From an uncultured Gammaproteobacteria bacterium (GTDB lineage Bacteria > Patescibacteriota > Microgenomatia > Levybacterales > UBA12049): DNA of 64,000 nucleotides. Shown here piece after piece: positions 9,170 to 25,150 of the stretch; the stretch's first letter is position 1; every line of letters begins with the position of its first letter. The notes under the pieces were generated by a model. The model saw only the letters and a list, made by a program, of their open reading frames with translations, made no database searches and had not been told where the DNA came from. Location of the stretch: contig CAZFRF010000001.1 in assembly GCA_964521295.1 (NCBI GenBank), positions 705,016 through 769,015 of the forward strand. The letters run 5' to 3'. The position numbers were made by a program, and so were the translations under genes.

Positions 9170-9604
9170 TTATTTTGAAGAGATTGATAGGTTTTGCAAG
9201 TCTTCTTTTGTTAGATCAAGAGGCTTTAAGAAGGTTTCAAGGTCGCCATCTGCTTGCTGAGGATTGCTAGCATCAAGAGTAAGGTTAAAACTGTCTGTTT
9301 CATATTCATAACTTAGCTCAAAAAATACCCCTTTATGCGGCAATTTTAGCAGAAGACTTCCCAGGTTTCTTTCTTTTTTTGTTTCTTCTACTTCTTGGTT
9401 GGTAAAGTCAACAGAGCTATTTTGATTTGGGACGCTGTTAGGGTTTGTTTGAATCTCTACGCTGGTTGGGGTAGGGAGCGAGGGGTTTTTTGACAAAATA
9501 GGATTATTTGACTGCGAGTTAAAGAATATTAATATCATTAATATTAAATAGACAATTACAATAGTCGAAGCGATAATTAAGAATTTTTTGTTAATATTTA
9601 TCAT
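9170..9604 (-). CDS. Small single-pass membrane or secreted protein, hypothetical, at the last position of the T4SS-like operon
   Basis: N-terminal TM, then a Pro/Ser/Asn-rich segment. No recognisable domain. Confidence 0.3.
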   Translation of the reverse strand: MININKKFLIIASTIVIVYLILMILIFFNSQSNNPILSKNPSLPTPTSVEIQTNPNSVPNQNSSVDFTNQEVEETKKERNLGSLLLKLPHKGVFFELSYEYETDSFNLTLDASNPQQADGDLETFLKPLDLTKEDLQNLSISSK

Positions 9605-10356
9605 TTTAATTTAACTGGAACTAAAGACATAAACGTGGTTCCTTTTCTATTCAAAGCAGGGATTGTTGTGGAGAATTTCCAGCCATTGCCTTGCTCATAG
9701 CAATCGCTTGGGGAAGCAGTAATGATTTTGTCTGTTGCTGGATCAGCGTCTACTATAACAAAGGTGTGAGCGCAAGAATTGCAACCAATCCAGTTCTTGG
9801 TAGAGGCAAGTATATACCAGCCCGCATTCGTAAAGCTACGAATCTGCATAATATCGGTGTGGGTTAAGGGTTTACCATCAACGGTATATTCACCCATGAT
9901 ATCCATTTGAGCTCTTTTGAGACCAACCGAGGAGAGAAAGCTTGGTTCAGTCATTTTTCGAGGACTAGATCCAACGCAGTCAATCCCCCCAGTACAGCTG
10001 CGGTTTCCCGGAAACCAAGCGATGCCCTTTTCTTCAAAAAGCCTAGATACAGTAACCGGGTTAGCTATGTTTGCATCAGATTGCTTTGCTTTTAGGCCAT
10101 ATGTCGCAAGAACCATAGCTACGCTTGATGGTCCACAACCAGAGCTTGCTATTGTGCCCGAATCGTATTTATTTGAATAATTAGACTGACAGTAAAATTT
10201 GAAATCTCCGTCTGCGTTTCCGCCAGAGCCGATGATAATTTCAAGGTCGGAAGATTGTGCAAAAACACGTTGAATAAGAAAAGCAGAGGAAAGGATTACT
10301 CCAACCAGGAATAGTATGGTAAAGACAGCAATTTTGTTTTTCATATTATCTGCCAC
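9601..10356 (-). CDS. Secreted peptidase C39-like (Peptidase_C39_2/CHAP-like papain-fold) protein, a putative cell-wall hydrolase of the T4SS-like locus
   Basis: Signal peptide, then SSGCGPSSVAMVLATYG, which closely matches the catalytic-Cys motif of the C39_2 family. A His-containing downstream motif (CAHTFVIV) follows. Confidence 0.5.
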   Translation of the reverse strand: MADNMKNKIAVFTILFLVGVILSSAFLIQRVFAQSSDLEIIIGSGGNADGDFKFYCQSNYSNKYDSGTIASSGCGPSSVAMVLATYGLKAKQSDANIANPVTVSRLFEEKGIAWFPGNRSCTGGIDCVGSSPRKMTEPSFLSSVGLKRAQMDIMGEYTVDGKPLTHTDIMQIRSFTNAGWYILASTKNWIGCNSCAHTFVIVDADPATDKIITASPSDCYEQGNGWKFSTTIPALNRKGTTFMSLVPVKLK

Positions 10357-11746
10357 TAATGGCTGGACAGCTATTATTACAATTATATCTTATATAGCTG
10401 CAGCTTGAAGCTTTATTGTTTTTTTCGCAAGTCCTTTGCTTCTCCCAGAGTTTTGCACATACGGGTTGGTCTTTGTATTTTTTAGTTCCGCACATGCATC
10501 TTGCGGTTCCCCAGTATTCAAAACTGTTGTCTTGTTGCTTGTTGGTCCAGATTGCATTTTGAATTTGTCTTTGCCATGTAACATCTCCTCTGTAGGAAAG
10601 CTTCTTCCAAGGCTGACCAGGGGGATTATTGCTGCACATTTGAAATCTTCCCCAAGTTCCTAGCGCAGCGCAGTTTCCGCTGGAATTATGATTTCCGGCA
10701 TCATGTCCATTTGGACTACCAGATTCGCAGTCTGCAAGATCAGACCAAAAGTCAACCATGGAGTCAGTAATTGGCTTATTTAAAGTATCTGCTATTACTT
10801 GCTTAAATTTTTTTTCTGTGTAGGTGCATTCAGGGTCGCCAAAATTTGCTGGTTTAAGTTGCTCTTTGAAAGGCGAAAGCTTGGTGTCTACCTCAATGAT
10901 GTTCATTATTCCACCATACTTATTGCAGGTCTTATCTGAAGGAGGGCTATCCATACCAGAGTACAGATCTCCTTCGGTGGTATCTATGTCATCGGTTGCC
11001 GTTACATCACCAAACCCACTTAACTTAAGAGAGACAGTTGTTGTTCCGTTCTTAACGCCAGGAGCAATTTTGTCAGAAATTGAGATTAAATAACTGTTGC
11101 CTGGACCCTTTTGTAGGGTACTTAGTTTCCAGCCATATCTAAATTGATTTTTAGCGCTAATTATTCCTCCAGAAGAAAGACTGTCGTATGCGGGATTTGT
11201 GCTATTTTTAGTTAAACTACTAAAGAACGCGGTGTTAATCGTGATATATACCCAGGCTTTATTTGGATCTACCTTTATTTTACTTTTATCAGCAAACACA
11301 AAGGCATACACGGTTATGTTTAAATTTCCTGTTTTGTTGTCTAGTACAGGGCAGTTCGTTCGAGAAGAGCTGCTGCAGCTAAGATATGCGTATCCACCAT
11401 TGAAGGTGAGTATTTTGGGTAGATTGGACGGAGGATTGTTTTGCGAGGATTCTGTTGTTTGTTGGGTAGTGCCTAATCCTCCTCCGCCGCCAAGTATGCT
11501 TAATAGCAGGGTGGTTACAAATAGAGCTACAAATACCCCTATTACTCCCCAAACCGCTGGAGAAAGTCCTGAGACAAGCGATTGAACGGTCTGTGCAGTA
11601 GAGTAAGCTCTTTGAGTGCTTTTAACAAATCTCCAGGCATTTCGTGCTTGTTTGGCTCTGTTGAGATTTTGTTCTAAAAACGATTTGTCATTTTGATTAG
11701 AGCCTTTATCTTCCTGAGCGTTTATTTTTATCTCATCGTCTTGCAT
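10346..11746 (-). CDS. Membrane-anchored protein with a C-terminal lysozyme-like/SLT (GH23-like) motif, a VirB1-like lytic transglycosylase candidate
   Basis: Cytoplasmic N-terminus, one TM followed by a Gly run, and a large Cys-rich ectodomain. CESGSPNGHDAGNHNSSGNCAALGTWGRFQM resembles the ES-x-NP...S-x-GA-x-GLMQ catalytic signature of SLT domains. Confidence 0.4.
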   Translation of the reverse strand: MQDDEIKINAQEDKGSNQNDKSFLEQNLNRAKQARNAWRFVKSTQRAYSTAQTVQSLVSGLSPAVWGVIGVFVALFVTTLLLSILGGGGGLGTTQQTTESSQNNPPSNLPKILTFNGGYAYLSCSSSSRTNCPVLDNKTGNLNITVYAFVFADKSKIKVDPNKAWVYITINTAFFSSLTKNSTNPAYDSLSSGGIISAKNQFRYGWKLSTLQKGPGNSYLISISDKIAPGVKNGTTTVSLKLSGFGDVTATDDIDTTEGDLYSGMDSPPSDKTCNKYGGIMNIIEVDTKLSPFKEQLKPANFGDPECTYTEKKFKQVIADTLNKPITDSMVDFWSDLADCESGSPNGHDAGNHNSSGNCAALGTWGRFQMCSNNPPGQPWKKLSYRGDVTWQRQIQNAIWTNKQQDNSFEYWGTARCMCGTKKYKDQPVCAKLWEKQRTCEKNNKASSCSYIRYNCNNSCPAISGR

Positions 11747-11748
11747 TG

Positions 11749-13530
11749 TTAAGCCTCCTTATTTTTCAGTATTTCTTGCGGGTTTGACGTAATCATTTCA
11801 TGCTCAAAAGGAGCTGCTACGATTTGTATGGCTACATGATTTTGTCCTGCGAAAAACAACCCTTCTCCAATATTGGCAGAGAGAAGTAGTTCTTTTTCAC
11901 CTTGAGTTAAGTAAAACACGTCTGAAACTAGGTCAATTTCTGATGGACTTTGCTTTAAAATCATTTGGATAGAAGAGTTAGACAAAACAGCCTTTCCATA
12001 GTCTGTGGAAAGGAAGTCCTGAACGTCCTGTGTGGCAGTAGTAAGCCCCAGGTAGTACTTTCTCGATCTTTTGGCAATAGAATACACAAATGAGGCAGAG
12101 TCTTCATATTTCATCATGTACCAGGCCTCATCTAGTATTAATAACCTTTTTTTTAGATCTTTTCTAACCTTTGTCCAAACAAAGTCTAAGATTATATGCA
12201 TCGCAATTGGCCTTAACTCCTCTTCTAGTCCGCGCAGGTTAAAAACGGTGAAGGGGTTAGAGATGTCAAAGTTTGACTGTTGGTTAAAAATCCCGGACAA
12301 AGAACCCTTGATAAATTTTTCAAGCATTAGGGCGAGTTCTTTGGCTTTTTCTTCTTCCATCCCAAGCAAGACTTTGTATAGATCCTCCATGATTGGCGGC
12401 GTCCTCTTTTGGGTGGATGGTTCAACCGTAATGCCTTTTTGCCTATATGTTTCAACAAGCGCTCTATCTAGTATTGCATCGTGGGCTGGGTCTAGTTTGC
12501 CTAGAACTATTTTTAATAATCCATGGAGACTAAGTATTTTGAGCCCCAGTTCGTTTTCGCCCTCTTCGTAGAGACCGGTTAAATCAAAGGGGTTAATTTT
12601 AATAGCCGATGAGGCATTAAAGCTAACTTGTTCTCCGCCTAGGGTCTGAGCTAATTTTTCATACTCTCCTTCGGGATCGATGATTATGACTTCTGTTCCA
12701 AAGATAAACTGGCGCATTGCTTCAAGTTTAATTAAGTAAGATTTTCCGGATCCAGATTTGCCGAGAACAACCTCGTTGGCATTTTCTAGGCTAAATCTGT
12801 CAAAGATAATTAAGGATCCGTTTTGTTGATTTATTCCATACATTATTCCTCTATCTTGAGTAAGGGTTGCAGATGTAAAAGGAAAAGTAGACGCAAGTGA
12901 GGTCGTGTCCATATTGTGGGTAATCAATAGTTTATCTGATGCAATTGGAATTGAAGACTTAAACCCATCCTCCATTTGTAACGTGGCAGTTTTGGATAAA
13001 AGGAGGAGGGAGCTAAGCGTTGAATTTAGATTTTTTGACGCTTCGTGTAGTTCCTCTAATGAATCAGATGCAAGGGATACGTATAGGCTAACCTGGAAAA
13101 ATCTTTCCATCCCTTTTGCTAATTCTTCTTGTACGCTAAGCGCGTCTTCCAACGATGCTTGAACAGTAGGGTTTGTCTCTAATCCTTCTTCCTCGTCGGA
13201 GGCAAGGGTCGCTTCCATTTCAGCAATTTTTCTTCTTAAATCAGATAAAACATCTGGCGTCGAGGAGGGGTAGATGAACATAGAGACGTTCATTGAATGA
13301 TCAAAGTTTATTAGTGGTGCAAGCCAGTTTGGATTAACATACCTTGGGTAGCCTGCTATAAACAAAGTTTTGTGAACCTTTTCTCCTACTCGAATATTGT
13401 TGAAATCAACCTCAACAGATGAAGGGGCAATAATATCTGGGATTGAGTTTGTCCCTCTTTGTAGCGCTTGGAGTCGAGGATCTGTTACGACCTGATTTGT
13501 TTCTTTATTTTGCTTTTTTTTGCCAAACAT
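11749..13530 (-). CDS. VirB4/TrbE/CagE-family T4SS ATPase (C-terminal ATPase domain)
   Basis: Walker A GKSGSGKS and Walker B LLILDEAW. The DEAW motif is characteristic of VirB4. Confidence 0.8.
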   Translation of the reverse strand: MFGKKKQNKETNQVVTDPRLQALQRGTNSIPDIIAPSSVEVDFNNIRVGEKVHKTLFIAGYPRYVNPNWLAPLINFDHSMNVSMFIYPSSTPDVLSDLRRKIAEMEATLASDEEEGLETNPTVQASLEDALSVQEELAKGMERFFQVSLYVSLASDSLEELHEASKNLNSTLSSLLLLSKTATLQMEDGFKSSIPIASDKLLITHNMDTTSLASTFPFTSATLTQDRGIMYGINQQNGSLIIFDRFSLENANEVVLGKSGSGKSYLIKLEAMRQFIFGTEVIIIDPEGEYEKLAQTLGGEQVSFNASSAIKINPFDLTGLYEEGENELGLKILSLHGLLKIVLGKLDPAHDAILDRALVETYRQKGITVEPSTQKRTPPIMEDLYKVLLGMEEEKAKELALMLEKFIKGSLSGIFNQQSNFDISNPFTVFNLRGLEEELRPIAMHIILDFVWTKVRKDLKKRLLILDEAWYMMKYEDSASFVYSIAKRSRKYYLGLTTATQDVQDFLSTDYGKAVLSNSSIQMILKQSPSEIDLVSDVFYLTQGEKELLLSANIGEGLFFAGQNHVAIQIVAAPFEHEMITSNPQEILKNKEA

Positions 13531-14183
13531 TATTTTACCTCCTTTCCTTTTACAATCGCCTTACCCTCTGTTTCATGTTTGGGGGTAAGGGACATCTCAT
13601 TGAAAATGTCATAATAGAGCTTTATTAGCTTATTTCGATCTAATATTTCCGATTTTAAGCCAATTCGTCCAAGTTGATTTCGAACGGTTTCTGCTTTAGA
13701 TCTTAAAACAGGCCCTGCTTGTTTGGAAAACTCTTCTAGAGCGCTAAGTCCAGCTACTTGCTTTGCTCCAAACACGCCTTTTTCTAAAGAAGAATAGGGA
13801 ACAACAATATAAAAGTTCTTGTCTAGTACGGAATTAACCTTAATTAGTTCTGCGACAAAATTTCTATACATCTGAATATGCTGAGAGAAGTTAGGGTTAA
13901 GTGTTTTTCTGGCCTCTTCGGTTAGCGCGTCCAGATAGCTTGAGATATTTAAAAGCTTGCTTCTTACAACTATTTGAATAGAAAAAGAAAGAGAGTTTAA
14001 CAGAGCTGAGTATGCATAGATTTTGGCATTTTGTTCTTGTTCCGATAGTAAATCGAAGTTAGTTGCTTCTACTTTTATTACCATGCAGGCGTTTCCGCCT
14101 GGAAGCACAACTACGTCATCAAATATATCTTGAATCTCAATAAATTTTTGGGTTGAGTTTGGTTTTATGCTTGCTTTGCCCAT
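13530..14183 (-). CDS. Hypothetical 217 aa soluble protein translationally coupled to VirB4. It is probably the detached N-terminal domain of VirB4.
   Basis: Its stop overlaps the VirB4 ATG (TAATG). 217 + 593 = 810 aa, the canonical VirB4 size. No TM. Confidence 0.35.
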   Translation of the reverse strand: MGKASIKPNSTQKFIEIQDIFDDVVVLPGGNACMVIKVEATNFDLLSEQEQNAKIYAYSALLNSLSFSIQIVVRSKLLNISSYLDALTEEARKTLNPNFSQHIQMYRNFVAELIKVNSVLDKNFYIVVPYSSLEKGVFGAKQVAGLSALEEFSKQAGPVLRSKAETVRNQLGRIGLKSEILDRNKLIKLYYDIFNEMSLTPKHETEGKAIVKGKEVK

Positions 14184-15361
14184 TAGTTAAAAAGAGACCT
14201 CCTTAGCTCTTCTCTTTGATCGGTAGAGATAACCTCAATAGGCATAATTACTTCTCCTTTGGTTTCAAATGCAACAGAGTCAAATCGATTTTGTCCTTTT
14301 GGATCCTCAAAACTAATGGTATATTTCCCATTGTTAAGAGCTGTGGCTGAGGCAAAATGTCCTAGGGCATTAGTTTTAAAAGCTCTTACAGCGTTTCCTT
14401 CTTCATCTTTAACCTCGACTAAAACATTAGCTAAGGGGTTTCCCCTAGGATCTTTAATGATTCCCGTAAGTAAGTTGGGGAATTCAGGGACACTTGGAAG
14501 TCCTACACTTTGGCTCATTGAATGAGGAATACTTCTTACAAATTTAGTCTCTTTTGCAGGAGCAGTCGTAGCAGTAGAAGGAGTAAAAACAGGCGAGCTT
14601 GAGCTATTCATATTTTTTTGAATCTCAATTAGTTTTTTCTCTAATTCTTCTTTTTGAGTTAGCATCTCATTCATTTGTTTTTGCAATTCCAAGACCTTTT
14701 GATGTGCGTCTAAAAGAGCTTGGGGATCAGCTTGGGCCTGTTTTTGTTCATTTACCTTTGCTTGAGCAAGCTCTTTTTCGAGTAAAGCAGCTGTTTTAAT
14801 TAATTCTTGGTTTTCTTCTGGCGCTTTAATTTTCTCTGGAGCTTGGGAAGAAGGCATTGGTTGGGCCACGGGTTGTCCTTGCCTAGCGTAGTAGTGCGAG
14901 GGAATACTGTTGGGAACGTTAATGTTGGAAGTTTGAGCTGAATATGCATTTAGATTTTGAAAAAATACAGATTCTTTTTGATCTAGTTTATTTTTTGGCT
15001 TATTTTTTATAAAGTTTTTAAACTGTTGGCTAGCTAGGGCATTTGGGTCTTCTTGTTTTGCCCATAGGCTTGCTCCCTGTTTTTGATATATATATTGAGT
15101 TGGGCTAAACACGGCTTTAAAAAAATGGGCAATCATTAAGTCTAAAGGCCGCCCAGATACTTGTAAAAAGGCAAAGCCTGCGCCAATTGCTCCAAAAGCT
15201 ATAGCTAAAGGAGCCTTGATAACAAAAGGCAAGGGCAAGATGTATGTAATCCAACCAATAATAGCCCCAGCTGCAATATAGGCAAACTGCTTTACCGTCA
15301 TGTCTCCAATTAGCTTGAATTGAAAACCTGTAATGTCTTGTGGAATAGGATGATTTTCCAT
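14183..15361 (-). CDS. Two-TM, VirB3-like membrane protein fused to a long coiled coil and a C-terminal CarboxypepD_reg-like beta-sandwich domain
   Basis: Two N-terminal TM helices lie directly upstream of VirB4, the usual VirB3 position. A Gln/Glu/Lys-rich coiled coil follows. The C-terminal region GIIKDPRGNPLANVLVEVKDEEGNAVRAFKTNALGHFASATALNNGKYTISFEDPKG matches the CarboxypepD_reg pattern. Confidence 0.4.
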   Translation of the reverse strand: MENHPIPQDITGFQFKLIGDMTVKQFAYIAAGAIIGWITYILPLPFVIKAPLAIAFGAIGAGFAFLQVSGRPLDLMIAHFFKAVFSPTQYIYQKQGASLWAKQEDPNALASQQFKNFIKNKPKNKLDQKESVFFQNLNAYSAQTSNINVPNSIPSHYYARQGQPVAQPMPSSQAPEKIKAPEENQELIKTAALLEKELAQAKVNEQKQAQADPQALLDAHQKVLELQKQMNEMLTQKEELEKKLIEIQKNMNSSSSPVFTPSTATTAPAKETKFVRSIPHSMSQSVGLPSVPEFPNLLTGIIKDPRGNPLANVLVEVKDEEGNAVRAFKTNALGHFASATALNNGKYTISFEDPKGQNRFDSVAFETKGEVIMPIEVISTDQREELRRSLFN

Positions 15362-15463
15362 AATAAATACCTCTATTTCTAGTATTTACCGTGAAAAATA
15401 TCATTTCAAGGTTATCAAAATATAACAAACCTCAAATTAAGTGGATCTACTTTTGCGTGAAAA

Positions 15464-15784
15464 CTATTTAAAGGAAAAATTATCTAAACCAGAAACTCCA
15501 GTTATGCGACCAATTAAATTGACGATAGCAAAAGAAGCAAAAATTAAAATCAGCCCAAGTAGAGAGTAGAGGAAGGTTTTTCTTGCAGAGTCAATGGATT
15601 TTGAATCTCCTCCTGAATTGATAAATTTAATTCCTGAATAAATTATCATAAATAGAGCAATAGTTCCTGCGCCAGCAAGTAGCCAATTTACAGCTAGGGC
15701 TATTAAATCAGGAATACAAGTAAGGTTGGGGATACCATGTCCTCTGCCTGCCATTTGAGTGCAAGACCAATCCATCTTAAACAT
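15464..15784 (-). CDS. VirB2/TrbC-like T4SS pilin (two-TM hairpin), paralog 1
   Basis: 106 aa. A hydrophobic helix, then the loop YSGIKFINSGGDSKSIDSARKTF, then a second helix. The same architecture is seen in the three neighbours. Confidence 0.5.
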   Translation of the reverse strand: MFKMDWSCTQMAGRGHGIPNLTCIPDLIALAVNWLLAGAGTIALFMIIYSGIKFINSGGDSKSIDSARKTFLYSLLGLILIFASFAIVNLIGRITGVSGLDNFSFK

Positions 15785-15828
15785 AATAAATATACAATAT
15801 CATTCCTAAGTAGTTTTAACAATAGATT

Positions 15829-16251
15829 TTAACGGCCGATTGATGGAAGGACAAAGAAGTTTGCTGTTTGTCCAGGAATAAAGAATCCAAGTAAGATATT
15901 CAATATAAAGTAGGATAAGAATATTATGACTAAGCCAATTACGGCTGCAATAATATGCTCTCTCGCTGCTCCAACTGCAGATTTGTCTCCACCTGAGGTT
16001 AACCATTTAAATCCACCCCAGATTAGGTAGAAAAGAGCAACAATTATTGAGATAACAAAGATAAAAGAAATGATTGCTGGAATAGCATTACTAACGGAGA
16101 ATCCACATAAAGGATTAAATTGCCCAGCTGGGCAAAGCTCAACTCTGGTTGCTCCTGCTGGAACAGTTGGGGTAGGGGTAGCCGCCATTGCTACGTTAGC
16201 TAATAATAAATATGCTGGCGTTAGGACTGAGGTAGATAATAATTTTTTCAT
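15829..16251 (-). CDS. VirB2-like T4SS pilin with signal peptide, paralog 2
   Basis: Signal peptide ending AMA, a Cys pair in the N-terminal segment, and the core LYLIWGGFKWLTSGGDKSAVGAAREHII between two TM helices. Confidence 0.5.
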   Translation of the reverse strand: MKKLLSTSVLTPAYLLLANVAMAATPTPTVPAGATRVELCPAGQFNPLCGFSVSNAIPAIISFIFVISIIVALFYLIWGGFKWLTSGGDKSAVGAAREHIIAAVIGLVIIFLSYFILNILLGFFIPGQTANFFVLPSIGR

Positions 16252-16294
16252 GTATATATTTAGACTAAACAGTTTTTAAATAATTGTCAAGAGT

Positions 16295-16810
16295 CTATTT
16301 ACAGCTATATGCAATAGCTCCGCCGGTAACGTTAGATGCTTGACATGTTTGTCCTGCGTTACAGCATTTTGGTCCACAAGCAAACTTTGACCCTGTACAT
16401 GTTGCACCGCTTGTTGTGCTATTCGTTATTGAGGGTATGGTAAAGTTGCTCAAACTAAAGCCTGGGATAAAGAAGTTTATTACAATATTTAGGATTAAAT
16501 AAGATAAAAAGATAACAATAAGGCCAATGATTGATGCAATAATATGCTCTCTCGCTGCTCCAACTGCAGATTTGTCTCCACCTGAGGTTAACCATTTAAA
16601 TCCTCCCCAGATTAAATAAAGCAGGGCAACAATTGTTGAGAGAACGAAGATAAAGTTTATAAAACTAGCTATAAGTTTCGCAGGGTCTCCCGCTGCATTA
16701 CAGATTACACCAAAGCTTCCAGTTGGGCATAATGTGCTAGCTGCAAAAACAGGAGAGGTTAATCCAAAAAAGCTGAAGGAAAAGATAAGGCCTGTGAGTA
16801 GTTTTTTCAC
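16295..16810 (-). CDS. VirB2-like T4SS pilin with signal peptide and a C-terminal Cys-rich extension, paralog 3
   Basis: Its core is identical to paralog 2. The 16541-16610 nt stretch is nearly identical to 15951-16020. It adds a tail with 7 Cys. Confidence 0.5.
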   Translation of the reverse strand: MKKLLTGLIFSFSFFGLTSPVFAASTLCPTGSFGVICNAAGDPAKLIASFINFIFVLSTIVALLYLIWGGFKWLTSGGDKSAVGAAREHIIASIIGLIVIFLSYLILNIVINFFIPGFSLSNFTIPSITNSTTSGATCTGSKFACGPKCCNAGQTCQASNVTGGAIAYSCK

Positions 16811-17199: not shown

Positions 17200-18379
17200 A
17201 TCCAGGCAATCTTAGTATGTCATATCCAATAGTTTGTAATATCACTAAGGAAAAGATTGTAAAAAGAAGACCGATAATGGCAGCGGTTAGTTGGTCTTTC
17301 GCTCCTTGTATTTTTTCAGGATTTCCCTGCGAAACCATGAGTCTGTAGCCTGAAAAAATAATTAAAATAGTGGCAATTCCGCCAATGACGCCAAATAAAA
17401 TTCCCATTAAAGTTTTTATAAACTCTCCAGGTCCACCTGTAAAGTTTATTTTTATGCCTAGGCCTGTTTGTATTTGGCAATTCTTATTTTTTACCTGATC
17501 TTCGCTACAAATGGGGGTAGGCGTGTTGTATCTGTATTTTGGACTTTCAAATGTAATTGCGGATTTAACAACAGAGCACTTTTCCTGTCTATCGTTAGCG
17601 CATCTGCATTCGTAGTTGCTGCATACGCTGGTGGATTTTCCGCAGGTACCGGAGGTTATGCATCCTTTTAGACATTTTCCTGATATGCAGGCATCTCCTA
17701 ATGATCCTCCCGTTTGGCAGTAGTAGCCAGAAGCGCAATTTCCTCTAGGCTTAGAGTTGCCTGCTCCGTTTTGACTGCACATGTTGTAGTCTTCGGAGTC
17801 TGGAGTGATCCTGCAATCTTGATTATTTCCTTGTCCATCTCCTGGGGGAGGCTTGGGCTCCGAGCCATCTGAATTATTAATAGTTAGGCTGCTTTTGCAG
17901 ATAGCAAATCCTTCGTCATCGCAGGTTGCTGGAGACGTGTTTTGTCCAAATACAGCATTGCAGAGCTTAAGAGTGTATTTGCCGCTTTTAAGAGTGTTAA
18001 TGTCTTGTAGGGTGTCTGTACGGAAAACCAAAGGCTCCCCAGATTGCTTGTCTTCCACCCACGTTGCACATCCTAAGCCAAACTGATCTGACAGGTTGGG
18101 GTTTGGAGTGCAAAACTCCCCGGTAGCATCCCCAATGATAACTGCGAAGTACTGGTTTCCATTAGAATCATTATCCGAAATATTGTTAAAAGTAAGCTCT
18201 TTAACAGATCCTGGATTTATTTTGGAGTTTTTAGTATTAGGGTTAAAAGAAAAAGAGCATTCGCTTATTGCAAGAGCCTGATCTTTTAAAACAAAGAATA
18301 GGCAAGAAACAAAAAAGAATAATAAAAAAATTTTTCTTAACACCTTTTTATCGTAACGCAACAATGAGGTAAATTTCAA
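17189..18379 (-). CDS. Large secreted Cys-rich protein with a C-terminal VirB2-like pilin module, a putative pilus-associated adhesin or minor pilin
   Basis: Signal peptide, then about 300 aa with more than 30 Cys. The C-terminal 75 aa (IFSGYRLMVSQGNPEKIQGAKDQLTAAIIGLLFTIFSLVIL) repeat the pilin hairpin architecture. Confidence 0.45.
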   Translation of the reverse strand: MKFTSLLRYDKKVLRKIFLLFFFVSCLFFVLKDQALAISECSFSFNPNTKNSKINPGSVKELTFNNISDNDSNGNQYFAVIIGDATGEFCTPNPNLSDQFGLGCATWVEDKQSGEPLVFRTDTLQDINTLKSGKYTLKLCNAVFGQNTSPATCDDEGFAICKSSLTINNSDGSEPKPPPGDGQGNNQDCRITPDSEDYNMCSQNGAGNSKPRGNCASGYYCQTGGSLGDACISGKCLKGCITSGTCGKSTSVCSNYECRCANDRQEKCSVVKSAITFESPKYRYNTPTPICSEDQVKNKNCQIQTGLGIKINFTGGPGEFIKTLMGILFGVIGGIATILIIFSGYRLMVSQGNPEKIQGAKDQLTAAIIGLLFTIFSLVILQTIGYDILRLPGFGK

Positions 18380-18380
18380 G

Positions 18381-19739
18381 TTAACTTGTGAATCTGAATC
18401 CCCTGCCTTTGATTGTTTGGATTAGTTTAGGCTCATTTGGATTATCTTCAATTTTTTTTCTAAGTCGGAAGATTAATTGATCTACGGCTTGATCTGTGAC
18501 TCCTAAAACTGTTTTTTGATCTCCCCAAACAGCGCTAATTACGTCTTCTTTTGTGACAAGAGTGTCTTTTTGGGTAATTAGGAATTTTAGTAATTTATAT
18601 TCTAAACTGGTTAGGAGTTCAGAAATGATGGTCTCGCCTTTTAATATTTCTCCTCTTTCATTTAAATTAATTTTGGTAAGTTCTGGGGGAATAGATTTAT
18701 CTTTAATATAATCAGCAAGTAGAGAAATGGTTAATAAATTATTTTTAACCAATCCTACGCTTTCTAGGTATTCAGCATTGTCTATTTTCCCTTTCATGAT
18801 CATAATTTGCTCTGATGGAGAGAGAAAGTTCCAGATTGCAAACAATGCACTTCTTATTGGTTTTTGTTCAATTAAATATTTTCTAAGTTCTAGTTTATTT
18901 TTAAAATTTTGTCCAGAGGAGAGGAGGGTCTCTGCGGAAAGGCGCATTAGATTACTGTGTCCTCCTGTTAGCTCGAAAACATTTTCTCTAAGTTCCTGAT
19001 CTATTTTTTTACCTGTAATTTTTTCTAAATATTCTAATCTAAAATTAATTCCAATTTCATTATAAATAGGTAGGTAAATAATTTTTCCGGCAACAAAATC
19101 ATAAAAATCTGCAAATAAAGTGGGTTCTAGAATTTCTTCGAGTGGACGGTTTAAGCTAAAAACTGCAGAAAACTTATACTTAGCTCTATTTCTGAGAATT
19201 CTTAAATTTGCAAAAAATTCGCTATCTAATACGCTGATATAATCTTCAAACCTATCAAAAAGCAAAACAATTGTTAGTCCCTTTTCTAGGGCTAAATAAT
19301 CTATTGCCTTTTTTAATCCAGCAAAGATAACTAAATCATCCTTAATCTGCATAGACTCCTTAAAAATTTTATTAATTTCTTCATAATCTTTTTGCATTTG
19401 CCTTTCTCTTAGCGAATCGATAATTCCTAGAAATATAAATTTAGTTGTTTCAGCAAGGGGCTTTTTGCGAATTTCAGAAAAATTTAAATAGACAAAATGG
19501 AAAAGCTTGTTGTCTTCATCCAAATGTTTTACGCGAACATTTTTGTTGTAGGACAAAAGTCCTAAAATATTAGATCTCCCAACTCCAGGAAGGGAAACAA
19601 TTTGACAAGAATTCCCTTCTTTTATGTAGTTTAGTATTTTTTCTATTTCTTGATCTCTTGTTCCATCTGGATAGAGGGCTTCAAAGTGTTGATCCATAAG
19701 TTTATTGTAATTTTTTTGTAAGGCAAATATCAAGCTCAA
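18381..19739 (-). CDS. Transcriptional regulator with an N-terminal ATPase-like domain and a C-terminal OmpR/PhoB-type winged helix
   Basis: C-terminus ...VWGDQKTVLGVTDQAVDQLIFRLRKKIE...IQTIKGRGFRF is the Trans_reg_C signature. A degenerate P-loop-like SLPGVGRSN lies near the N-terminus. Confidence 0.5.
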   Translation of the reverse strand: MSLIFALQKNYNKLMDQHFEALYPDGTRDQEIEKILNYIKEGNSCQIVSLPGVGRSNILGLLSYNKNVRVKHLDEDNKLFHFVYLNFSEIRKKPLAETTKFIFLGIIDSLRERQMQKDYEEINKIFKESMQIKDDLVIFAGLKKAIDYLALEKGLTIVLLFDRFEDYISVLDSEFFANLRILRNRAKYKFSAVFSLNRPLEEILEPTLFADFYDFVAGKIIYLPIYNEIGINFRLEYLEKITGKKIDQELRENVFELTGGHSNLMRLSAETLLSSGQNFKNKLELRKYLIEQKPIRSALFAIWNFLSPSEQIMIMKGKIDNAEYLESVGLVKNNLLTISLLADYIKDKSIPPELTKINLNERGEILKGETIISELLTSLEYKLLKFLITQKDTLVTKEDVISAVWGDQKTVLGVTDQAVDQLIFRLRKKIEDNPNEPKLIQTIKGRGFRFTS

Positions 19740-19769
19740 AAGGCATTTTAGGCTTAAACTGCAAGTGTT

Positions 19770-22700
19770 ATGAGAGTAGAGATATATAGAAGATTAAATC
19801 AAGCTAATCCAGAATTGACAATAGGCTCAGTTAAACCTAAACTGGAATCAGGAGATATTTTTATGGCAAAAGTAGATGGTGGTGGAGAGCAGCCAGGTCA
19901 AATTCCAGAGAAAAAAATAACACAAGAAATTGTTCCTCCTCAGGGTAGAGTTGGAAGGGCAAGGCGGGCATTGAGTTCTCGAGCAGAGCCTCCTCGAATT
20001 GCCCATGCATTGCTGGATGATCCATCAGAGCCAATTGTGCCCCCCGTCGCTCCCTTGTCTAGTCCAGATATTCCCGTAATTCCCGACGAAGCTCCAGGGG
20101 TTCCAGAGCATGGAGCCCCTATCCCAGCAGCTCCCGAAGAGGGATCTATTCCAGAGCAAATAAGGTTAGCTTGGGAATCGGCAGTACCAATTTCTGATCA
20201 AGCATCTGAGACCGAAAGAAAAGTAAGAGATGTAATTATAGAGGCGGCAGTGCTAAGAGGGTTTAGTCCCGTGGATCAAGCGGAGACTGTCAGAAGATTA
20301 AAAAGTTATTTAAGAACTAAGCAGACAGGAAGAGAGGCGGGTTTTGATGAGATTCCAGAAAATGAAGAGAGAATAACTAAAGAAGTACTTAAGGAAATAA
20401 TCAAAGTTATGACGAGTGGATTTAGCTTTACCGAAGAGGAGCTCGATGCTTACTCCGGTATGATAGAAAGTCTTGATACTAATGCCCCTGATTATGTAGA
20501 GAGAGCAAAAAAAATAATTCAAGTAATCCATTCTAAGCAAGAAGAATACGCAATTGATGAAGATACTAATTTGAACGAGGAGCAGGGAGAGGAAGGTTTT
20601 TATGAAGAGTCTGCAGAGGGACGATCTCAAATTGAGGGTGAAGAGCGGGTCTCACTTTTCGATGGTGTTTATAGAGCTCTGGATGCGTTAGAGGATGCTC
20701 CAGATGATGCAACGAGAGAGAGTATGGAGAGAGGAATACGCAGGGCTTTAGCTACGGACTTAACGGTTAATGGCGCATTAATTGAATCTTCTGCAGTCAG
20801 GCCCGGGGAAGGTGTAAGGTTAAGGAATGGAAGATGGGTTCATCCAGAAGATTACGAAAGATATAGGGCAACTTGGGCAAGTATAACAGCAGATCCGAAC
20901 CTTGATTCTATGCGCGCAAGGGCAAAGAAATTTATTAATGAACTAGAATTCAAGCTAGACGAGAGGGGTCGAGAGGTTGCCGGAGACAGAATTCAAAACG
21001 TTCAAGATCTTGCAAAATTTATTGTTACAAAACAAAATGCTGAAATATATGGAGTAGGTAAGAGGTTTGAGCTTGTAGATTCTGAAGGAAATTTTCATCC
21101 AGAAAACTTTTTAATTTGGCTTAGGGAACAATCAATTGCAATTCATAACGATAACAAGAATGATCAGCTTAGTCCATTGACATCTGTAGTTATTGAAACC
21201 ACATTCAGAACCATTTCTATTTATATGATGACACGTTTTAGAGAGCAGTATTTTAGAGATAAAAAAAGCGGCGAGGTTATGCATGATCTCGCAAATAGGG
21301 TTCTGATGGAGGCTTTTATGTTTGGAGTTTTCAGAAATTCAGATATTGCATATAGGTCAGTTATGGGTGAGGACAAAAGATTACCTGAGGCTTTGCCGCA
21401 AATTCATTCCAGAAATGATTTGACCAGTTCAGACAATTGGCAATATATGCTAAATGCTCCAGCTGAATTTGGCACTGAACATGATATGCGAGTTGGCGAA
21501 GCTGTAATGTTTTGTAACGATTTTTATTACAACATTTCAGATAAAGAGGAATTAATTAAGCTATTGGGCGACCGCCCGATTACAAGGCAAGATTTTGAAG
21601 ATGCTTTATTGCTACTTAGCGGTAAACATGAATGGGAACGAGACCAAATTAAATTTGATGCTCATTTTGATCCTGAGGATCCAAATGGACCTTTTTATCT
21701 AAACGATGATAAACAAAGAGTTTATTTCTTTATGGACTCTAATGGACAAATGCAAGACACTGTAAATATTGATGCTTTTATTGATGGGTTAAATACCTTC
21801 AATATGGCAACGCCTAAGACTAGCACGGTAAATTTATTAAGGGAAATTGTAAGAGTTAAAGCGGCTCAGAAGTATGGGTTAAACGATGGAATAGCTAGGG
21901 GAGAAAAAGCAGAAGAGAAAAAAAGACAGTATGACGAGGCAGTTGCGCGTCATAAAGTCATTCTGAGAAGAATTACTCGAGATGGTCAAGAACTGAGTCA
22001 AGCTGAAATTGATAGAAGAGCAAAAGATAGGGCAAACTCAGAATTTAAAAAGGAACAGAGCGCAGACAGAACAAATCTTGAATATGCTGAAACAACCTCT
22101 TGGATTTTTCAAAGACCCTATGGAATTGCAGCTAGAAACGATACTTTACGAAGGGGCTTTGATGCAGCGACGAAATTATATTTATATGACTATATTCTTA
22201 GGCAATCAAAAGAAGGAACTGGTGGTCCGATAGGTATTCCAGAAATGATGGGAATCTTTAGGCTTTTGAGCCCAGATCTAGTAGAGGGTTTACTTACTGA
22301 GTCAGGGGTTAGTCCAAGACAGTTAATGCTTCAAATTAGAGAGGTAGATTTGATGCCAGGAGGTACCCCAGAGCAAGAAGCTGAGAAAGCTAAGAAAAAA
22401 GCAGAAATATTGTCACATTTAAGATTTGCTGAAAGAGCTGAGATGGATTTCACATCAAACCAGCAATCTAGAGGATTTCAAATATACCATTCCTTCACGG
22501 AAGGAGATGATCTTGATTTACACGATGTTATAACCCATAGCTTCTGGGAAGGAATAAAAGTAAAACTGAGTAAGGCCGAAGAGGTTGTAAAAGATAAATG
22601 GATGAAGCCTGTGAGATATTTGCTTTCTTCAAATAATGCTTTGAATTTTGCTGCAAAAGCAAGAATGCTAGATTTTGTTAAAACGGGTAAATTAAAGCCT

Positions 22701-23303
22701 GCAGCAGCTCCAGAGGCTATTGTTCAAGAAAGAAATGCTTTAAATCAGCAAAGAGTGAAGGAAGGTAAGGCTACATTGCCACAGGTGGCAATGCCCAAGC
22801 CTGCTCCTATATATTCTACGGTTACTCTTGCTGAAAAAATGCTGAGTCCGGATGTTACAGACAGGGATTATATATCAGATGACGGTAAGGTAATAAAGAT
22901 TAGGGAGGCTTTAATGGACCCGGCAAAATATGAGCAAAATAGAGCCAATGTTAGAAAGGCATTAGCAAAAAATGCCATTACAACAAGAATAGCATTCGTT
23001 TTGAAATTTCATAGAGAATTGTATGGATTAGGAGAAAGATGGGGCTATGAAAGAGTTCAGGCGCTTTACCATTATCTTCACAGAATAAGAGAATGGGAGC
23101 CAGTTGAGGGTAAGCCAGGTCGGGTAAAGGAAAATCCCGAAAAGGGTTTTTTCTCTCACCATGATCTAGAATGGATGAGAGGGCTTAGTAATACTAAAGA
23201 GTATAATATGATCATGGAAGAGCTTGGTAAGCAAGGTGGCGTAGCAGCTCTTGGCGCAGGAAAAGATGCATTGTCAGCGTTTATACAAGCTATATTAAAA
23301 TAA
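19770..23303 (+). CDS. Large (1177 aa) acidic hydrophilic protein with a proline-rich N-terminal region and no TM or recognisable catalytic motif. Hypothetical, possibly a T4SS substrate.
   Basis: Long uninterrupted ORF. PxxP-rich tract near residues 60-130. No Walker motifs and no His-triad relaxase motif were seen. Local GC is above the window average. Confidence 0.4.
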   Translation: MRVEIYRRLNQANPELTIGSVKPKLESGDIFMAKVDGGGEQPGQIPEKKITQEIVPPQGRVGRARRALSSRAEPPRIAHALLDDPSEPIVPPVAPLSSPDIPVIPDEAPGVPEHGAPIPAAPEEGSIPEQIRLAWESAVPISDQASETERKVRDVIIEAAVLRGFSPVDQAETVRRLKSYLRTKQTGREAGFDEIPENEERITKEVLKEIIKVMTSGFSFTEEELDAYSGMIESLDTNAPDYVERAKKIIQVIHSKQEEYAIDEDTNLNEEQGEEGFYEESAEGRSQIEGEERVSLFDGVYRALDALEDAPDDATRESMERGIRRALATDLTVNGALIESSAVRPGEGVRLRNGRWVHPEDYERYRATWASITADPNLDSMRARAKKFINELEFKLDERGREVAGDRIQNVQDLAKFIVTKQNAEIYGVGKRFELVDSEGNFHPENFLIWLREQSIAIHNDNKNDQLSPLTSVVIETTFRTISIYMMTRFREQYFRDKKSGEVMHDLANRVLMEAFMFGVFRNSDIAYRSVMGEDKRLPEALPQIHSRNDLTSSDNWQYMLNAPAEFGTEHDMRVGEAVMFCNDFYYNISDKEELIKLLGDRPITRQDFEDALLLLSGKHEWERDQIKFDAHFDPEDPNGPFYLNDDKQRVYFFMDSNGQMQDTVNIDAFIDGLNTFNMATPKTSTVNLLREIVRVKAAQKYGLNDGIARGEKAEEKKRQYDEAVARHKVILRRITRDGQELSQAEIDRRAKDRANSEFKKEQSADRTNLEYAETTSWIFQRPYGIAARNDTLRRGFDAATKLYLYDYILRQSKEGTGGPIGIPEMMGIFRLLSPDLVEGLLTESGVSPRQLMLQIREVDLMPGGTPEQEAEKAKKKAEILSHLRFAERAEMDFTSNQQSRGFQIYHSFTEGDDLDLHDVITHSFWEGIKVKLSKAEEVVKDKWMKPVRYLLSSNNALNFAAKARMLDFVKTGKLKPAAAPEAIVQERNALNQQRVKEGKATLPQVAMPKPAPIYSTVTLAEKMLSPDVTDRDYISDDGKVIKIREALMDPAKYEQNRANVRKALAKNAITTRIAFVLKFHRELYGLGERWGYERVQALYHYLHRIREWEPVEGKPGRVKENPEKGFFSHHDLEWMRGLSNTKEYNMIMEELGKQGGVAALGAGKDALSAFIQAILK

Positions 23304-23308
23304 AGCTT

Positions 23309-25150
23309 TTATGAATGAGGCGGTGGTGGAGGAGTTCCTCCAGTATTTCCGGGATTTTGTGGATTATTATCTTCGTCTTGAGCATTATCTATGCCTAGTT
23401 TAGTTCTTATCTGTTTTCTTCTTCGATTTGCCGCATCGTCAACTCTTTCCCTAAACTGTCCAAAGCGAAGACCCACTCTGCTTTCAGCAAATTTATTAGA
23501 AATAACTGCTCTACCAATCTTTGCTTCTCCTCTTCTATTTTCGCCAAAGATTTCATGATTTATTCTTCTAATAGGAGCGGCAATTATTCCAGTTGCAGGG
23601 CCTAGTGCTCCTCCTAAGCCAAAGCCAGTCTTGGGAGCCTTAATTGCAGATTTAATCATCTTAGCTGCTTCAGGAGTCATGAAGAGTAGCCCGAGGCTTG
23701 TAATTGCTCCTAAAAATCCTGGCGCAAGACTATTGCCTAATAAGGGTGGGGTAAATGAACCATTTGGAGCAGCGTTGCTTGGGCCCGCGGACATAGCTGC
23801 TCCAATTACGTTTGCGAGCAGAATCATTCCATATACTGTTGGAAATACTGCTAAATTAGCAACTACGTCTTTTAGCCATGGGCCAAAGCCTAAAGATGAA
23901 TTTCCTGGAATTAAGGCTCCGATTATCCAAATTGGAGCAAAGACTACGTCAAGTAAAAGAGAAACATAAGAACGAAGTAGCATCAGTAGGATTCTAAAGA
24001 GTGTAATTAAGACACCTACGATAACAATGAGCCATATTATTAAGAATGGCAAAATATCTGTAAAAAAGAAATGAATTCCTAAAAATGCTCCAGTTGATTC
24101 TATTGCTGTTTGTCCTGTGCAAAGAAGTCCCCCTACAAATGGGACTCCTGATCCTGCGCAGGGTATTAGTGAGGAAAATTTGAGAGCTCCATATATGCTT
24201 GCAACGTTATACAACATGTCAACAACGCTAAAATTAATCCAGTCCCCGACTCCAAAATTAAAAGCTTTTCCTATCATGTCCATGATACTTCCTGCTCCAC
24301 CAGTAAGTCCGGAATGAGAGCTTGGTCCGATCAGTATTGCATTGAGGCTATCTTTTCCGGCAACGGCAATATTGTTAACTATTCCAAAGATATTTAAATT
24401 ACCAGCAGCATTAAGAATCGTTTGCCCTTCGATGCTAGCTGGAGAAAGGCTTGTATTTAATCCTGGAAGTCCTGAGAAAAGACTATAGATTAAATACATA
24501 GAGAAAAACATTAAATCAATCAAAAGGCCAACTATTGCAAACGAAAAGGTGATAAGAATGAGTGCAATTATTATTTTAGGAATTTGATTTTGAATTCCCA
24601 TGACTGTTCGGGGATCAATCCTTGCTCTTAACATGATTCCTACGCCAATTAATATAAAAGCAATAACAAAAATAAGATAAGTTAAATTTCTAAAAATTGT
24701 CCAAATATTAATAAGCGGAGATAGGGCTTTAAAGCCTATTCCTTGCGCATAGCTTGGCTTCGCAACTCCAAAGCTTTGAGTTGCATAGGAGATAAAATCT
24801 GAAGTATGTACTGGAGGAGTAAATAGCATTCCGATTCCTTGAATGGTCAATCCCAATGCTCCTCCGCCTTTTTCCGTATAGCCAATTTTATTTGTTTTTG
24901 GATTGATACCCAAACACCCTTGTTTTGGATTAATAGGATCGATTCCTGATAGTTGACATATAAATGCTGACATGGTTTCGATTAGGGCACTTTGTGTATA
25001 GTTATGAAGATTTTTAGATACATTCGCATCTGTATCTGGGGCTAAATAATTGTTTGACTGAGTTGTCTCTTGCGCAAATGAAGGCTTTAAAAAGCTAAAA
25101 ATTAAGACAAATGCAAAAAAAACTGCAAGGATTCGAGCAGGAAATTTCAT
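23309..25150 (-). CDS. Polytopic membrane protein, VirB6/TrbL-like T4SS channel component candidate
   Basis: Signal peptide, at least 8 TM helices, a Gly-rich periplasmic loop and a hydrophilic proline-rich C-terminal tail (TPPPPPHS). This is the architecture of the TrbL/VirB6 family. Confidence 0.4.
   Translation of the reverse strand: MKFPARILAVFFAFVLIFSFLKPSFAQETTQSNNYLAPDTDANVSKNLHNYTQSALIETMSAFICQLSGIDPINPKQGCLGINPKTNKIGYTEKGGGALGLTIQGIGMLFTPPVHTSDFISYATQSFGVAKPSYAQGIGFKALSPLINIWTIFRNLTYLIFVIAFILIGVGIMLRARIDPRTVMGIQNQIPKIIIALILITFSFAIVGLLIDLMFFSMYLIYSLFSGLPGLNTSLSPASIEGQTILNAAGNLNIFGIVNNIAVAGKDSLNAILIGPSSHSGLTGGAGSIMDMIGKAFNFGVGDWINFSVVDMLYNVASIYGALKFSSLIPCAGSGVPFVGGLLCTGQTAIESTGAFLGIHFFFTDILPFLIIWLIVIVGVLITLFRILLMLLRSYVSLLLDVVFAPIWIIGALIPGNSSLGFGPWLKDVVANLAVFPTVYGMILLANVIGAAMSAGPSNAAPNGSFTPPLLGNSLAPGFLGAITSLGLLFMTPEAAKMIKSAIKAPKTGFGLGGALGPATGIIAAPIRRINHEIFGENRRGEAKIGRAVISNKFAESRVGLRFGQFRERVDDAANRRRKQIRTKLGIDNAQDEDNNPQNPGNTGGTPPPPPHS

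Follow-up and report, generated by a model that had tools for sequence, protein, structure and literature searches.

What kind of machine does Levybacterium keep beside its replication origin, and what would such a machine be used for? We addressed this question for a stretch of 64,000 nucleotides (contig CAZFRF010000001.1 of assembly GCA_964521295.1; hereafter the window) from a genome that is a Levybacterium (Microgenomatia), in which a locus resembling a type IV secretion system (T4SS) extends from position 9170 to 25150. Its gene content comprises a VirB4/TrsD-like/PrgI-VirB3 membrane module, a pilin array, two predicted wall-degrading enzymes encoded after virB4 and a regulator heading the array; a polytopic protein of VirB6-like fold is encoded 5.8 kb upstream. 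All open reading frames (ORFs) listed below were found in the window at the coordinates given. We conclude with considerable confidence that the locus encodes a Patescibacteria T4SS which descends from the monoderm MPF_FATA conjugation machinery and has acquired VirB2-like pilins. The identification starts from the membrane module (exponents and unlabelled decimals in brackets are E values throughout).

11749-13530, minus strand: VirB4-family ATPase of 593 amino acids (aa); NCBIfam conju_CD1110, 5.2e-116, 388.7 bits against a cut-off of 325.
13530-14183, minus strand: TrsD-like protein of 217 aa; NCBIfam VirB4_plasma positions 100-236, 2.4e-10; TrsD, 8.9e-6.
14183-15361, minus strand: PrgI/VirB3-like fusion protein; PF12666 PrgI over aa 5-92, 4e-10, 40.5 bits against 27.

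The best curated model for the ATPase belongs to the MPF_FATA family (CD1110). Pfam P-loop_TraG (3e-27), AAA_10 and DUF87 as well as NCBIfam TraC-F-type (1.3e-52) were also matched; the reading of 11749-13530 as a VirB4, put forward in an earlier note on this DNA, is thus backed by significant matches to hidden Markov models (HMMs) of the VirB4/TraC type. The match to conju_CD1110 covers profile positions 178-734 of 752 and the N-terminal part is missing. Because the TrsD-like protein matches the region that the ATPase lacks, we regard it as the detached VirB4 N-terminal domain. Its orthologue in locus L082 (93.5% identity) carries a precomputed match to PF26593 TraC-like. The PrgI fusion protein begins with a hydrophobic hairpin (aa 26-70, two transmembrane segments), continues with a Gln/Glu/Pro-rich linker and ends in an immunoglobulin (Ig)-like CarboxypepD_reg domain (aa 298-356, 8.6e-8).

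For comparison we used the best 80 genomic matches of VirB4 (loci L001 onwards), across which the ATPase is 56-84% identical. The closest named relatives are Levybacteria/Levyibacteriota (up to 82%); none of the 80 is titled as a cultivated organism from outside the candidate phyla radiation (CPR), and those with names are mostly Levybacteria or other Patescibacteria. The title 'uncultured Gammaproteobacteria bacterium' is borne by about 25 of the 80 records (L001, L003, L014, L022-L024 and some 20 more) and 'Methylomirabilota' by one; both are probably placeholders or wrong labels. The trsD-like gene adjoins virB4 in 77 of the 80 loci, and both ends of the PrgI fusion are kept in 75.

Directly upstream of prgI, and co-oriented with one another, lie five genes encoding pilin domains.

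17189-18379, minus strand: VirB2-like pilin fusion of 396 aa; PF18895 over aa 314-383, 6.6e-9, 36.2 bits.
16852-17199, minus strand: VirB2-like pilin of 115 aa, start codon uncertain; PF18895, 4.9e-5, 23.8 bits, just under the cut-off.
16295-16810, minus strand: VirB2-like pilin of 171 aa with a variable Cys-rich C-terminal tail (8 Cys); PF18895, 1e-9, 38.8 bits.
15829-16251, minus strand: VirB2-like pilin of 140 aa with a signal peptide and two hydrophobic segments; PF18895, 9.4e-9, 35.7 bits.
15464-15784, minus strand: VirB2-like pilin of 106 aa with two hydrophobic segments; PF18895, 2.3e-6, 28.0 bits.

The gathering score of PF18895 (T4SS_pilin), 26.6 bits, is passed by four of the five proteins; the fifth, of 115 aa, has the same two-helix core and GD/AR motif as the other four. 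All five share a hairpin of two helices in which a GD...A(R/K) loop is conserved, and the 106-aa pilin aligns with the rest. Matches of the small two-transmembrane proteins to TrbC/VirB2 (PF04956) were marginal (0.024-0.086). The 396-aa protein consists of a signal or anchor segment, a hypervariable Cys-rich ectodomain of ~280 aa and a C-terminal VirB2-like pilin core, which also matches the Mbov_0395 pilin-like family of a mycoplasma integrative and conjugative element (ICE; NCBIfam, 2.7e-7). Most of its 21 Cys residues lie in the ectodomain, and we consider this fusion a candidate tip or adhesin pilin. Throughout the locus the Cys-rich regions (7-21 Cys) are predicted extracytoplasmic parts, with 0-1 Cys in the cytoplasmic ones. 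In 37 loci the array keeps its synteny with prgI-trsD-virB4.

The array is headed by a regulatory gene.

18381-19739, minus strand: regulator of 452 aa with an OmpR/PhoB-type winged helix; Trans_reg_C over aa 376-450, 5.2e-19.

PDB matches of the regulator were to PhoB/OmpR DNA-binding domains only. Pfam, NCBIfam and PDB searches revealed no receiver domain, and the N-terminal part of ~370 aa is unassigned; a degenerate P-loop-like motif, PGVGRSN, was read there by eye. Its start codon is uncertain, the protein having 452 aa in the window versus 438 aa in a relative. In 17 loci the gene neighbours the pilin array, facing either way.

Twelve co-oriented minus-strand genes, packed tightly or overlapping, run from 19739 down to 9170 and end one base from the end of dnaN at 9169.

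6581-7939, plus strand: dnaA; DnaA 60-77% identical to Levybacteria relatives at the same place.
7964-9169, plus strand: dnaN; DnaN 44-63% identical to Levybacteria relatives at the same place.
6553-9169, plus strand: replication-origin context with dnaA, dnaN and a cluster of DnaA boxes.

The minimum of cumulative GC skew falls at 6-8 kb of the window. Near-perfect DnaA boxes number 31 in the window, a count reached by no shuffled control sequence, and eight of them cluster within 1.4 kb (6553-7984), with a perfect box, TTATCCACA, at 6553. Together with dnaA and dnaN, these features place the locus beside the replication origin. The dnaN ORF of 401 aa, which opens on TTG, is 34 aa longer than the 367 aa called in a relative, and its first codons overlap DnaA-box-like sites (7964-7984); the true dnaN start is probably further downstream than 7964. 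A scan of the locus for promoters and terminators performed no better than on shuffled sequence, and its result was not used.

The order regulator, pilin array (four to six genes), prgI, trsD, virB4, variable gap, dnaN, dnaA recurs in about 50 loci, and since these represent independent genomes the array is more than a chance assembly. Nucleotide collinearity with the closest relative crosses the locus into rnpA/yidC and beyond, and the remainder of the window consists of housekeeping genes. The conserved position beside dnaN/dnaA in these ~50 genomes and the collinearity into housekeeping genes argue for vertical chromosomal inheritance and against a recent mobile element. The earlier note had described an origin-proximal locus of a CPR genome with a regulator, five VirB2-like pilins, a two-transmembrane VirB3-like fusion and VirB4 in two parts; the profile matches, GC skew and DnaA boxes above bear out all of these.

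The gene for the polytopic protein lies outside this run.

23309-25150, minus strand: polytopic membrane protein of 613 aa, VirB6-like by fold, with a signal peptide and conserved Cys in the N-terminal ectodomain.

Its family counts 397 members and is without a Pfam domain. HMM searches found no match in the protein or in 39 relatives, and a Pfam scan of homologues from more distant CPR loci gave no TrbL match; hhalign comparison of the family with PrgH of pCF10 yielded nothing. A fold search with the structural model, in contrast, placed TrwI/VirB6 first, with the best superposition on TrwI/VirB6 of R388 (structure 7O3V/8RT9). The top three Foldseek matches were all TrwI, though not significant by themselves. 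A homologue lies upstream of prgI in the more distant loci L061-L077, which are labelled WWE3, Saccharibacteria or Nomurabacteria. Judged from the model, the 613-aa protein is probably VirB6. Of the TrbL/VirB6-like character ascribed to this flank by the earlier note, the fold is thus supported indirectly, whereas a profile match, to TrbL included, was not obtained.

Three further genes fill the space between virB4 and dnaN.

10346-11746, minus strand: candidate membrane-anchored wall hydrolase of 466 aa in the VirB1/PrgK position, with SLT/lysozyme matches at family level.
9601-10356, minus strand: predicted papain-fold (C39-like) cysteine peptidase of 251 aa; Peptidase_C39_2, 0.0039, 18.2 bits against a cut-off of 24.
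9170-9604, minus strand: bitopic membrane protein of 144 aa with one N-terminal hydrophobic segment, the last gene of the array, adjoining dnaN.

The 466-aa protein comprises a charged cytoplasmic N-terminus, one transmembrane segment, a DUF11-like β-sandwich and a Cys-rich C-terminal domain (~aa 264-466), and has no direct match in Pfam, NCBIfam or PDB. A word-indexed search returned 21 relatives only; a full HMMER profile search returned 751 cluster representatives at E≤1e-3. Among 59 distant family members that were scanned, ten matched SLT (best 4.2e-6), three Phage_lysozyme2, three C-type lysozyme (Lys) and one Transglycosylas, and DUF11 was present in 30. Glu341, part of a CES motif that is followed by GxWGxFQM, is invariant in the family and stands at the end of helix 328-341 in the AlphaFold 2 model, which consists of the β-sandwich and a helical C-terminal domain. 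Foldseek with the full model matched only Ig-like or CBM-like β-sandwiches to the middle domain. In hhalign comparisons, the hydrolase domain aligned with the Rpf domain of Micrococcus luteus over the catalytic motif alone (E 0.0017, probability 15%) and with pCF10 PrgK not at all. The Micrococcus luteus Rpf query sequence itself matched PDB RpfB at 2.7e-22, as expected of an Rpf-like sequence. Given the 15% probability we dropped an Rpf-like label for the domain. We predict from its sequence a hydrolase of the lysozyme/SLT clan, of no specific family. The exact 466-aa product was absent from the protein search results (best 91%), unlike the exact 613-aa and 1177-aa products, and the public annotation may use another start for this gene or omit it.

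The 251-aa protein is homologous (1.3e-16) to a protein encoded in a related locus (L009:11839-12714) that passes Peptidase_C39_2 (4.8e-7, 30.9 bits). The family alignment shows no variation at Gln57, Cys74 and His197. The protein, predicted to be secreted or anchored, contains seven Cys residues and begins with a hydrophobic segment. No PDB relative was found by sequence. We predict a C39-like cysteine peptidase, again judging from sequence. The SLT-like hydrolase and C39-like peptidase of the earlier note thus find indirect support, the former through distant family members and the invariant Glu, the latter through the L009 homologue and the invariant Gln/Cys/His. The 144-aa protein has homologues at the same position in at least eight other loci and no family match in Pfam or NCBIfam. 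In an hhalign comparison with PrgL/VirB8 of pCF10 it showed no similarity beyond the transmembrane helix. For the 466-aa, 251-aa, 144-aa, 613-aa and 1177-aa proteins alike, direct searches with Pfam, NCBIfam, phmmer and profiles against PDB produced no significant match.

The gap between virB4 and dnaN varies from ~0.06 to 6.2 kb across genomes, and gap ORFs in relatives match SLT (six), SLT_3 (two), Peptidase_C39_2 (four), CHAP (three), Amidase_2 (two), M23 (one) and others. The ORF immediately following virB4 retains its charged N-terminus, transmembrane segment and Ig-like module in the closest relatives, but its C-terminal domains differ. In L017 Pfam identifies an SLT domain there. By eye, a CHAP/NlpC-like Cys...His pattern was seen in L001:4554-6119, L006:12504-13196 and L007:11903-13660, and an HExxH motif (LLLHETGH, LLIHESGH) in L003:11852-13111, L004:4480-5880, L005:4789-6021 and L008:11824-12762.

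One more candidate component is encoded far from the locus.

51687-54059, plus strand: VirD4/TraD-like type IV coupling protein (T4CP) homologue of 790 aa; TrwB_AAD_bind, 8.2e-10, 38.5 bits against 20.5.

It has an N-terminal transmembrane segment and matches Pfam TraG-D_C (4.8e-6), as well as NCBIfam SXT_TraD (4.6e-14) and conju_CD1115 (2.2e-9), the latter two under their family cut-offs. Its gene lies 26.5 kb from the VirB6-like gene and 38 kb from virB4. No relaxase domain was found by Pfam and NCBIfam scans in any ORF of the locus or in the large ORFs of the window. The absence of relaxase and coupling protein noted earlier therefore holds for the locus, and a T4CP homologue stands elsewhere in the window; with that homologue present, the lack of a coupling protein in the locus counts for less as an argument against substrate transfer. 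A 433-aa protein without family match, acidic and ending in a Cys-rich region that resembles a zinc ribbon, is encoded a short way ahead of the T4CP-like gene at 49783-51084 (plus strand), and a XerC/D-like tyrosine recombinase two genes downstream of it at 54495-55355 (minus strand). A 612-aa ORF at 31416-33254 (minus strand) is likewise without a family match.

One of the closest known systems is that of Southlakia epibionticum ML1, whose 'apparent T4SS' (SEML1_0006-0019) was found essential for epibiotic growth by Wang et al. in 2023 (PMC10633639). It is closest to Gram-positive conjugative systems, yet has an essential series of pilins and neither coupling protein nor relaxase (PMC10633639). 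The cluster SEML1_0004-0019 lies beside dnaA/dnaN/recF, and nearly all its genes are essential by transposon sequencing (PMC10633639). Gene-order comparison, which the earlier note had suggested as a check, shows that this Saccharibacteria cluster has the same parts as the Levybacterium locus, the order itself being that of the ~50 relatives. Both loci are chromosomal and beside dnaA/dnaN; both encode a VirB4 (613 aa in S. epibionticum) adjoined by a separate TrsD-like protein (unannotated in the S. epibionticum tables), a PrgI with a C-terminal extension, a TrbL/VirB6-like polytopic protein, lysozyme-like and other exported proteins downstream of virB4, and a PF18895 pilin array (six genes there, five here). 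Large unannotated proteins of ~1000 aa lie inside the S. epibionticum cluster too, and it is likewise without relaxase or T4CP. The loci differ in that the pilin array is divergent from the rest in S. epibionticum and co-oriented here, that the S. epibionticum cluster lists no OmpR-type regulator, and that its NTF2/VirB8-like SEML1_0012 has no counterpart that we could find. A phage-tail-lysozyme/glucosaminidase there contrasts with an SLT-clan domain and a separate C39-like peptidase here. Essentiality has been shown for the S. epibionticum system, whereas the Levybacterium locus is known from its genes.

The broader family was surveyed by Quiñonero-Coronel et al. in 2025 across 3,035 genomes, with a monophyletic Patescibacteria VirB4 clade nested in MPF_FATA (PMC12102498). 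These authors recorded TrsD beside virB4 in 1,664 cases and counted 441 arrays with 2-11 pilin genes, an arrangement enriched in Microgenomatia and Saccharimonadia; relaxases were almost absent, T4CP genes usually stood at a distance from virB4, and in Paceibacteria and Microgenomatia the virB4 neighbourhood included dnaA/dnaN (PMC12102498); a 2025 review repeats this picture and speculates on a pilus conduit. The Levybacterium locus agrees with the surveyed systems in its MPF_FATA-like VirB4, TrsD beside virB4, PrgI/VirB3, VirB2 array, lack of a relaxase, distant T4CP and nearby dnaA/dnaN. It differs on two points: VirB6 was called 'scarce' in Microgenomatia, whereas we find a VirB6-like-fold family of 397 members, and VirB1 homologues were rarely beside virB4, whereas a variable hydrolase module directly follows virB4 here. 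Text searches of the survey turned up neither the regulator nor the fusion domain of PrgI, and its sections on gene repertoire and chromosomal context mention neither a syntenic ~1000-aa family nor fusions of ectodomains to pilins (PMC12102498).

Among Gram-positive conjugative systems, pCF10 of E. faecalis offers a parallel: its series PrgH(VirB6)-PrgI(VirB3)-PrgJ(VirB4)-PrgK(hydrolase) corresponds to prgI-trsD-virB4-hydrolase here, and its VirB4 belongs to the same NCBIfam family, CD1110. TrsD is a component of the pGO1 subclass, as in the Trs system of S. aureus. However, pCF10 has a relaxase, a T4CP and the adhesin PrgB and no pilins; its PrgK is a single multi-domain hydrolase of 871 aa, the functions of which are split over two genes here; and there is no detectable sequence relation to PrgH, PrgK or PrgL. 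The locus resembles the Gram-negative VirB/Trw systems (MPF_T, R388) in its pilins of the two-helix VirB2 type and in its polytopic protein, for whose model TrwI/VirB6 gave the best superposition. It differs from them in lacking VirB5, B7, B9, B10 and B11, in its monoderm envelope, and in having pilins of PF18895, not PF04956.

Several points weigh against a Patescibacteria T4SS of this kind. The placement of VirB4 in the Patescibacteria clade is suggested by best hits; the assignments of the hydrolase and the peptidase are transitive, not direct; and no VirB8-like (NTF2-fold) component was found in the locus, the ectodomain of the 144-aa protein being only ~70 aa long. A VirD4-like T4CP ~26 kb away would make transfer of a DNA or protein substrate possible. 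No experiment exists on any Microgenomatia system, and a pilus has been seen for no patescibacterial T4SS. As to VirB8, the component is rare outside ABY1 in Patescibacteria T4SSs (PMC12102498), and the published family therefore does not need it.

If VirB/Trw systems and the essential system of S. epibionticum are taken as models, a Patescibacteria T4SS of this composition might work as follows. VirB4 docked on PrgI and VirB6 would pull the two-helix pilins out of the membrane, and the extracted pilins would polymerise into a pilus or a conduit through the cell wall. The membrane-anchored hydrolases would open peptidoglycan, either the cell's own or the host's, and the variable Cys-rich ectodomains of the 396-aa and 171-aa pilins would contact the host surface. 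The machine would serve epibiotic interaction, be it by attaching, by exporting effectors or by taking up host molecules, and not plasmid conjugation, and its origin-proximal position may raise gene dosage. A pilus or host-interaction role in preference to plasmid transfer had been favoured in the earlier note as well, and the Patescibacteria literature, which comes to the same view (PMC10633639, PMC12102498, PMC12857230), suggests it by analogy for this locus. Which of effector export, host-molecule import and attachment is involved is not readable from the sequence.

From the closest relative (~85% nucleotide identity) the genes diverge to unequal degrees. DnaA is 96%, VirB4 98% and the 140-aa pilin 99% identical between the two genomes; the 396-aa pilin is 50%, the 171-aa pilin 57% and a large neighbouring protein 39% identical.

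19770-23303, plus strand: acidic protein of 1177 aa between the VirB6-like gene and the regulator; function unannotatable.
L003:3-3491, L006:539-3742, L016:3-3734, L041:2170-5166, L050:1147-4854 and L053:1-2844: members of the 1177-aa family in comparison loci, syntenic, acidic and without transmembrane segment.

Nucleotide similarity is lost exactly over the 396-aa pilin ectodomain (17528-18332), over the Cys-rich tail of the 171-aa pilin (16303-16470) and after the first ~95 codons of the 1177-aa gene (beyond 20054). Pilin cores are nearly identical to those of the closest relative, and the 396-aa ectodomain is replaced. The parts predicted to be surface-exposed are the ones that evolve fast. 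The 1177-aa protein has no transmembrane segment, no signal peptide, one Cys and a net charge of -32; it was deemed unannotatable in the earlier note and it stays so, there being no Pfam, NCBIfam or PDB match for it, no Pfam or PDB match for its family and only two matches among 5.8e9 proteins. All 11 loci that extend far enough have, upstream of the regulator, a large ORF on the opposite strand (562-1402 aa, in some cases truncated where the locus ends), flanked on its other side by the VirB6-like gene wherever that lies within the locus. One profile iteration joins seven of these 11 ORFs, and P0143 on the contig of the closest relative, to the 1177-aa protein.

We tentatively propose, as a possibility more than an expectation, that the Levybacteria T4SS locus holds an undescribed layer of host specificity that works by cassette swapping. 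It would consist of pilin cores with replaceable Cys-rich ectodomains; of an anchored protein in the VirB1 position with swapped lysozyme-like, CHAP-like or HExxH metallopeptidase-like domains; and of a hypervariable cytoplasmic family of ~900-1400 aa that would be either a new core component or an effector.

A rather unlikely explanation casts the machine as a translocator of effectors or toxins at the host bacterium, with the 1177-aa protein as its substrate and the swapped hydrolase domains acting on the host wall. Several features fit: the acidic 1177-aa family without transmembrane segment or signal peptide; the synteny of an ORF in this position with the T4SS in 11 of 11 loci; its far faster evolution (39% identity against 96-98% for its neighbours); and the kept anchor of the first ORF after virB4, whose C-terminal domain is lysozyme-like here, SLT in L017 and CHAP-like or HExxH-containing, by eye, elsewhere. 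Effector delivery has moreover been speculated on for Saccharibacteria (PMC10633639, PMC11665869). However, no translocation signal or effector-like domain was identified, there is no obvious immunity gene, CHAP and HExxH were assigned in relatives by eye only, and hypervariability fits relaxed constraint too.

We are about equally doubtful that the machine is mainly an importer, a ComB-like or Ced-like conduit through which a biosynthetically poor epibiont would take up DNA, nucleotides or host molecules. Import has been proposed for Saccharibacteria (PMC11665869, PMC12857230), where in S. epibionticum competence (ComEC) is dispensable and the T4SS essential, and it would suit a locus with no coupling protein in a window with no detected relaxase. 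The 593-aa VirB4 also matches the archaeal DNA-import ATPases CedB (9.8e-17) and CedD weakly, yet these scores are far under those of the conjugative VirB4 families, the locus has no recognisable DNA-binding or nuclease component, and the direction of transport cannot be read from its genes.

A working or recent conjugation system, either an ICE or a chromosomal Hfr-like arrangement, would have to combine the distant VirD4-like T4CP with an unrecognised relaxase, and we consider it very unlikely. The conjugative family of the VirB4 (CD1110), the T4CP homologue and the nearby tyrosine recombinase would fit, and the 1177-aa cytoplasmic protein could hide a novel relaxase, 'very different relaxases' having been left open in PMC12102498. 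Yet the window scans matched no relaxase family, and an oriT is unrecognisable without one; by hhalign the 1177-aa family is unlike the pCF10 relaxase PcfG and the ArdC-like PcfD, and it resembles no PDB chain; the recombinase is XerC/D-like; and in S. epibionticum the t4cp gene is non-essential and the T4SS essential (PMC12102498). We rejected an ICE on the grounds of the conserved position next to dnaN/dnaA, which, with the collinearity into housekeeping genes, points to vertical inheritance.

That the small two-helix proteins belong to an unrelated family such as holins and lie near VirB4 by coincidence is hardly credible and was rejected on their PF18895 matches: short proteins with two transmembrane segments and marginal PF04956 matches might suggest it, but four of the five pass the curated threshold, no holin family was matched, one is matched by the pilin-like family of the mycoplasma ICE as well, synteny ties the array to prgI-trsD-virB4, and the homologous genes of S. 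epibionticum have proved essential along with its T4SS.

No T4SS before the patescibacterial one had been shown to be essential to its carrier (PMC12857230, PMC11665869). Most ultra-small CPR bacteria have a chromosomal secretion and pilus cluster of this sort next to the replication origin. Systems of this kind were described between 2023 and 2025, including their origin proximity and pilin arrays in Microgenomatia, and the Levybacterium locus adds no new kind; it is a clean, complete Microgenomatia example. What is added here is a distant VirD4-like protein, a structural VirB6 candidate for Microgenomatia, and the cassette-like hypervariability of two pilin ectodomains, the hydrolase domain and the ~1000-aa family. 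Three leads follow from the locus. A large family with a VirB6-like fold exists in a class where HMM surveys called VirB6 scarce, and the conserved regulator could control the system. The pilin ectodomains, the hydrolase domain and the ~1000-aa neighbour diversify between near-identical genomes, which makes them the likeliest host-contact parts. If the proposed cassette layer is real, it would be the site of an arms race with the host bacterium and would provide the first candidate substrate for a patescibacterial T4SS.

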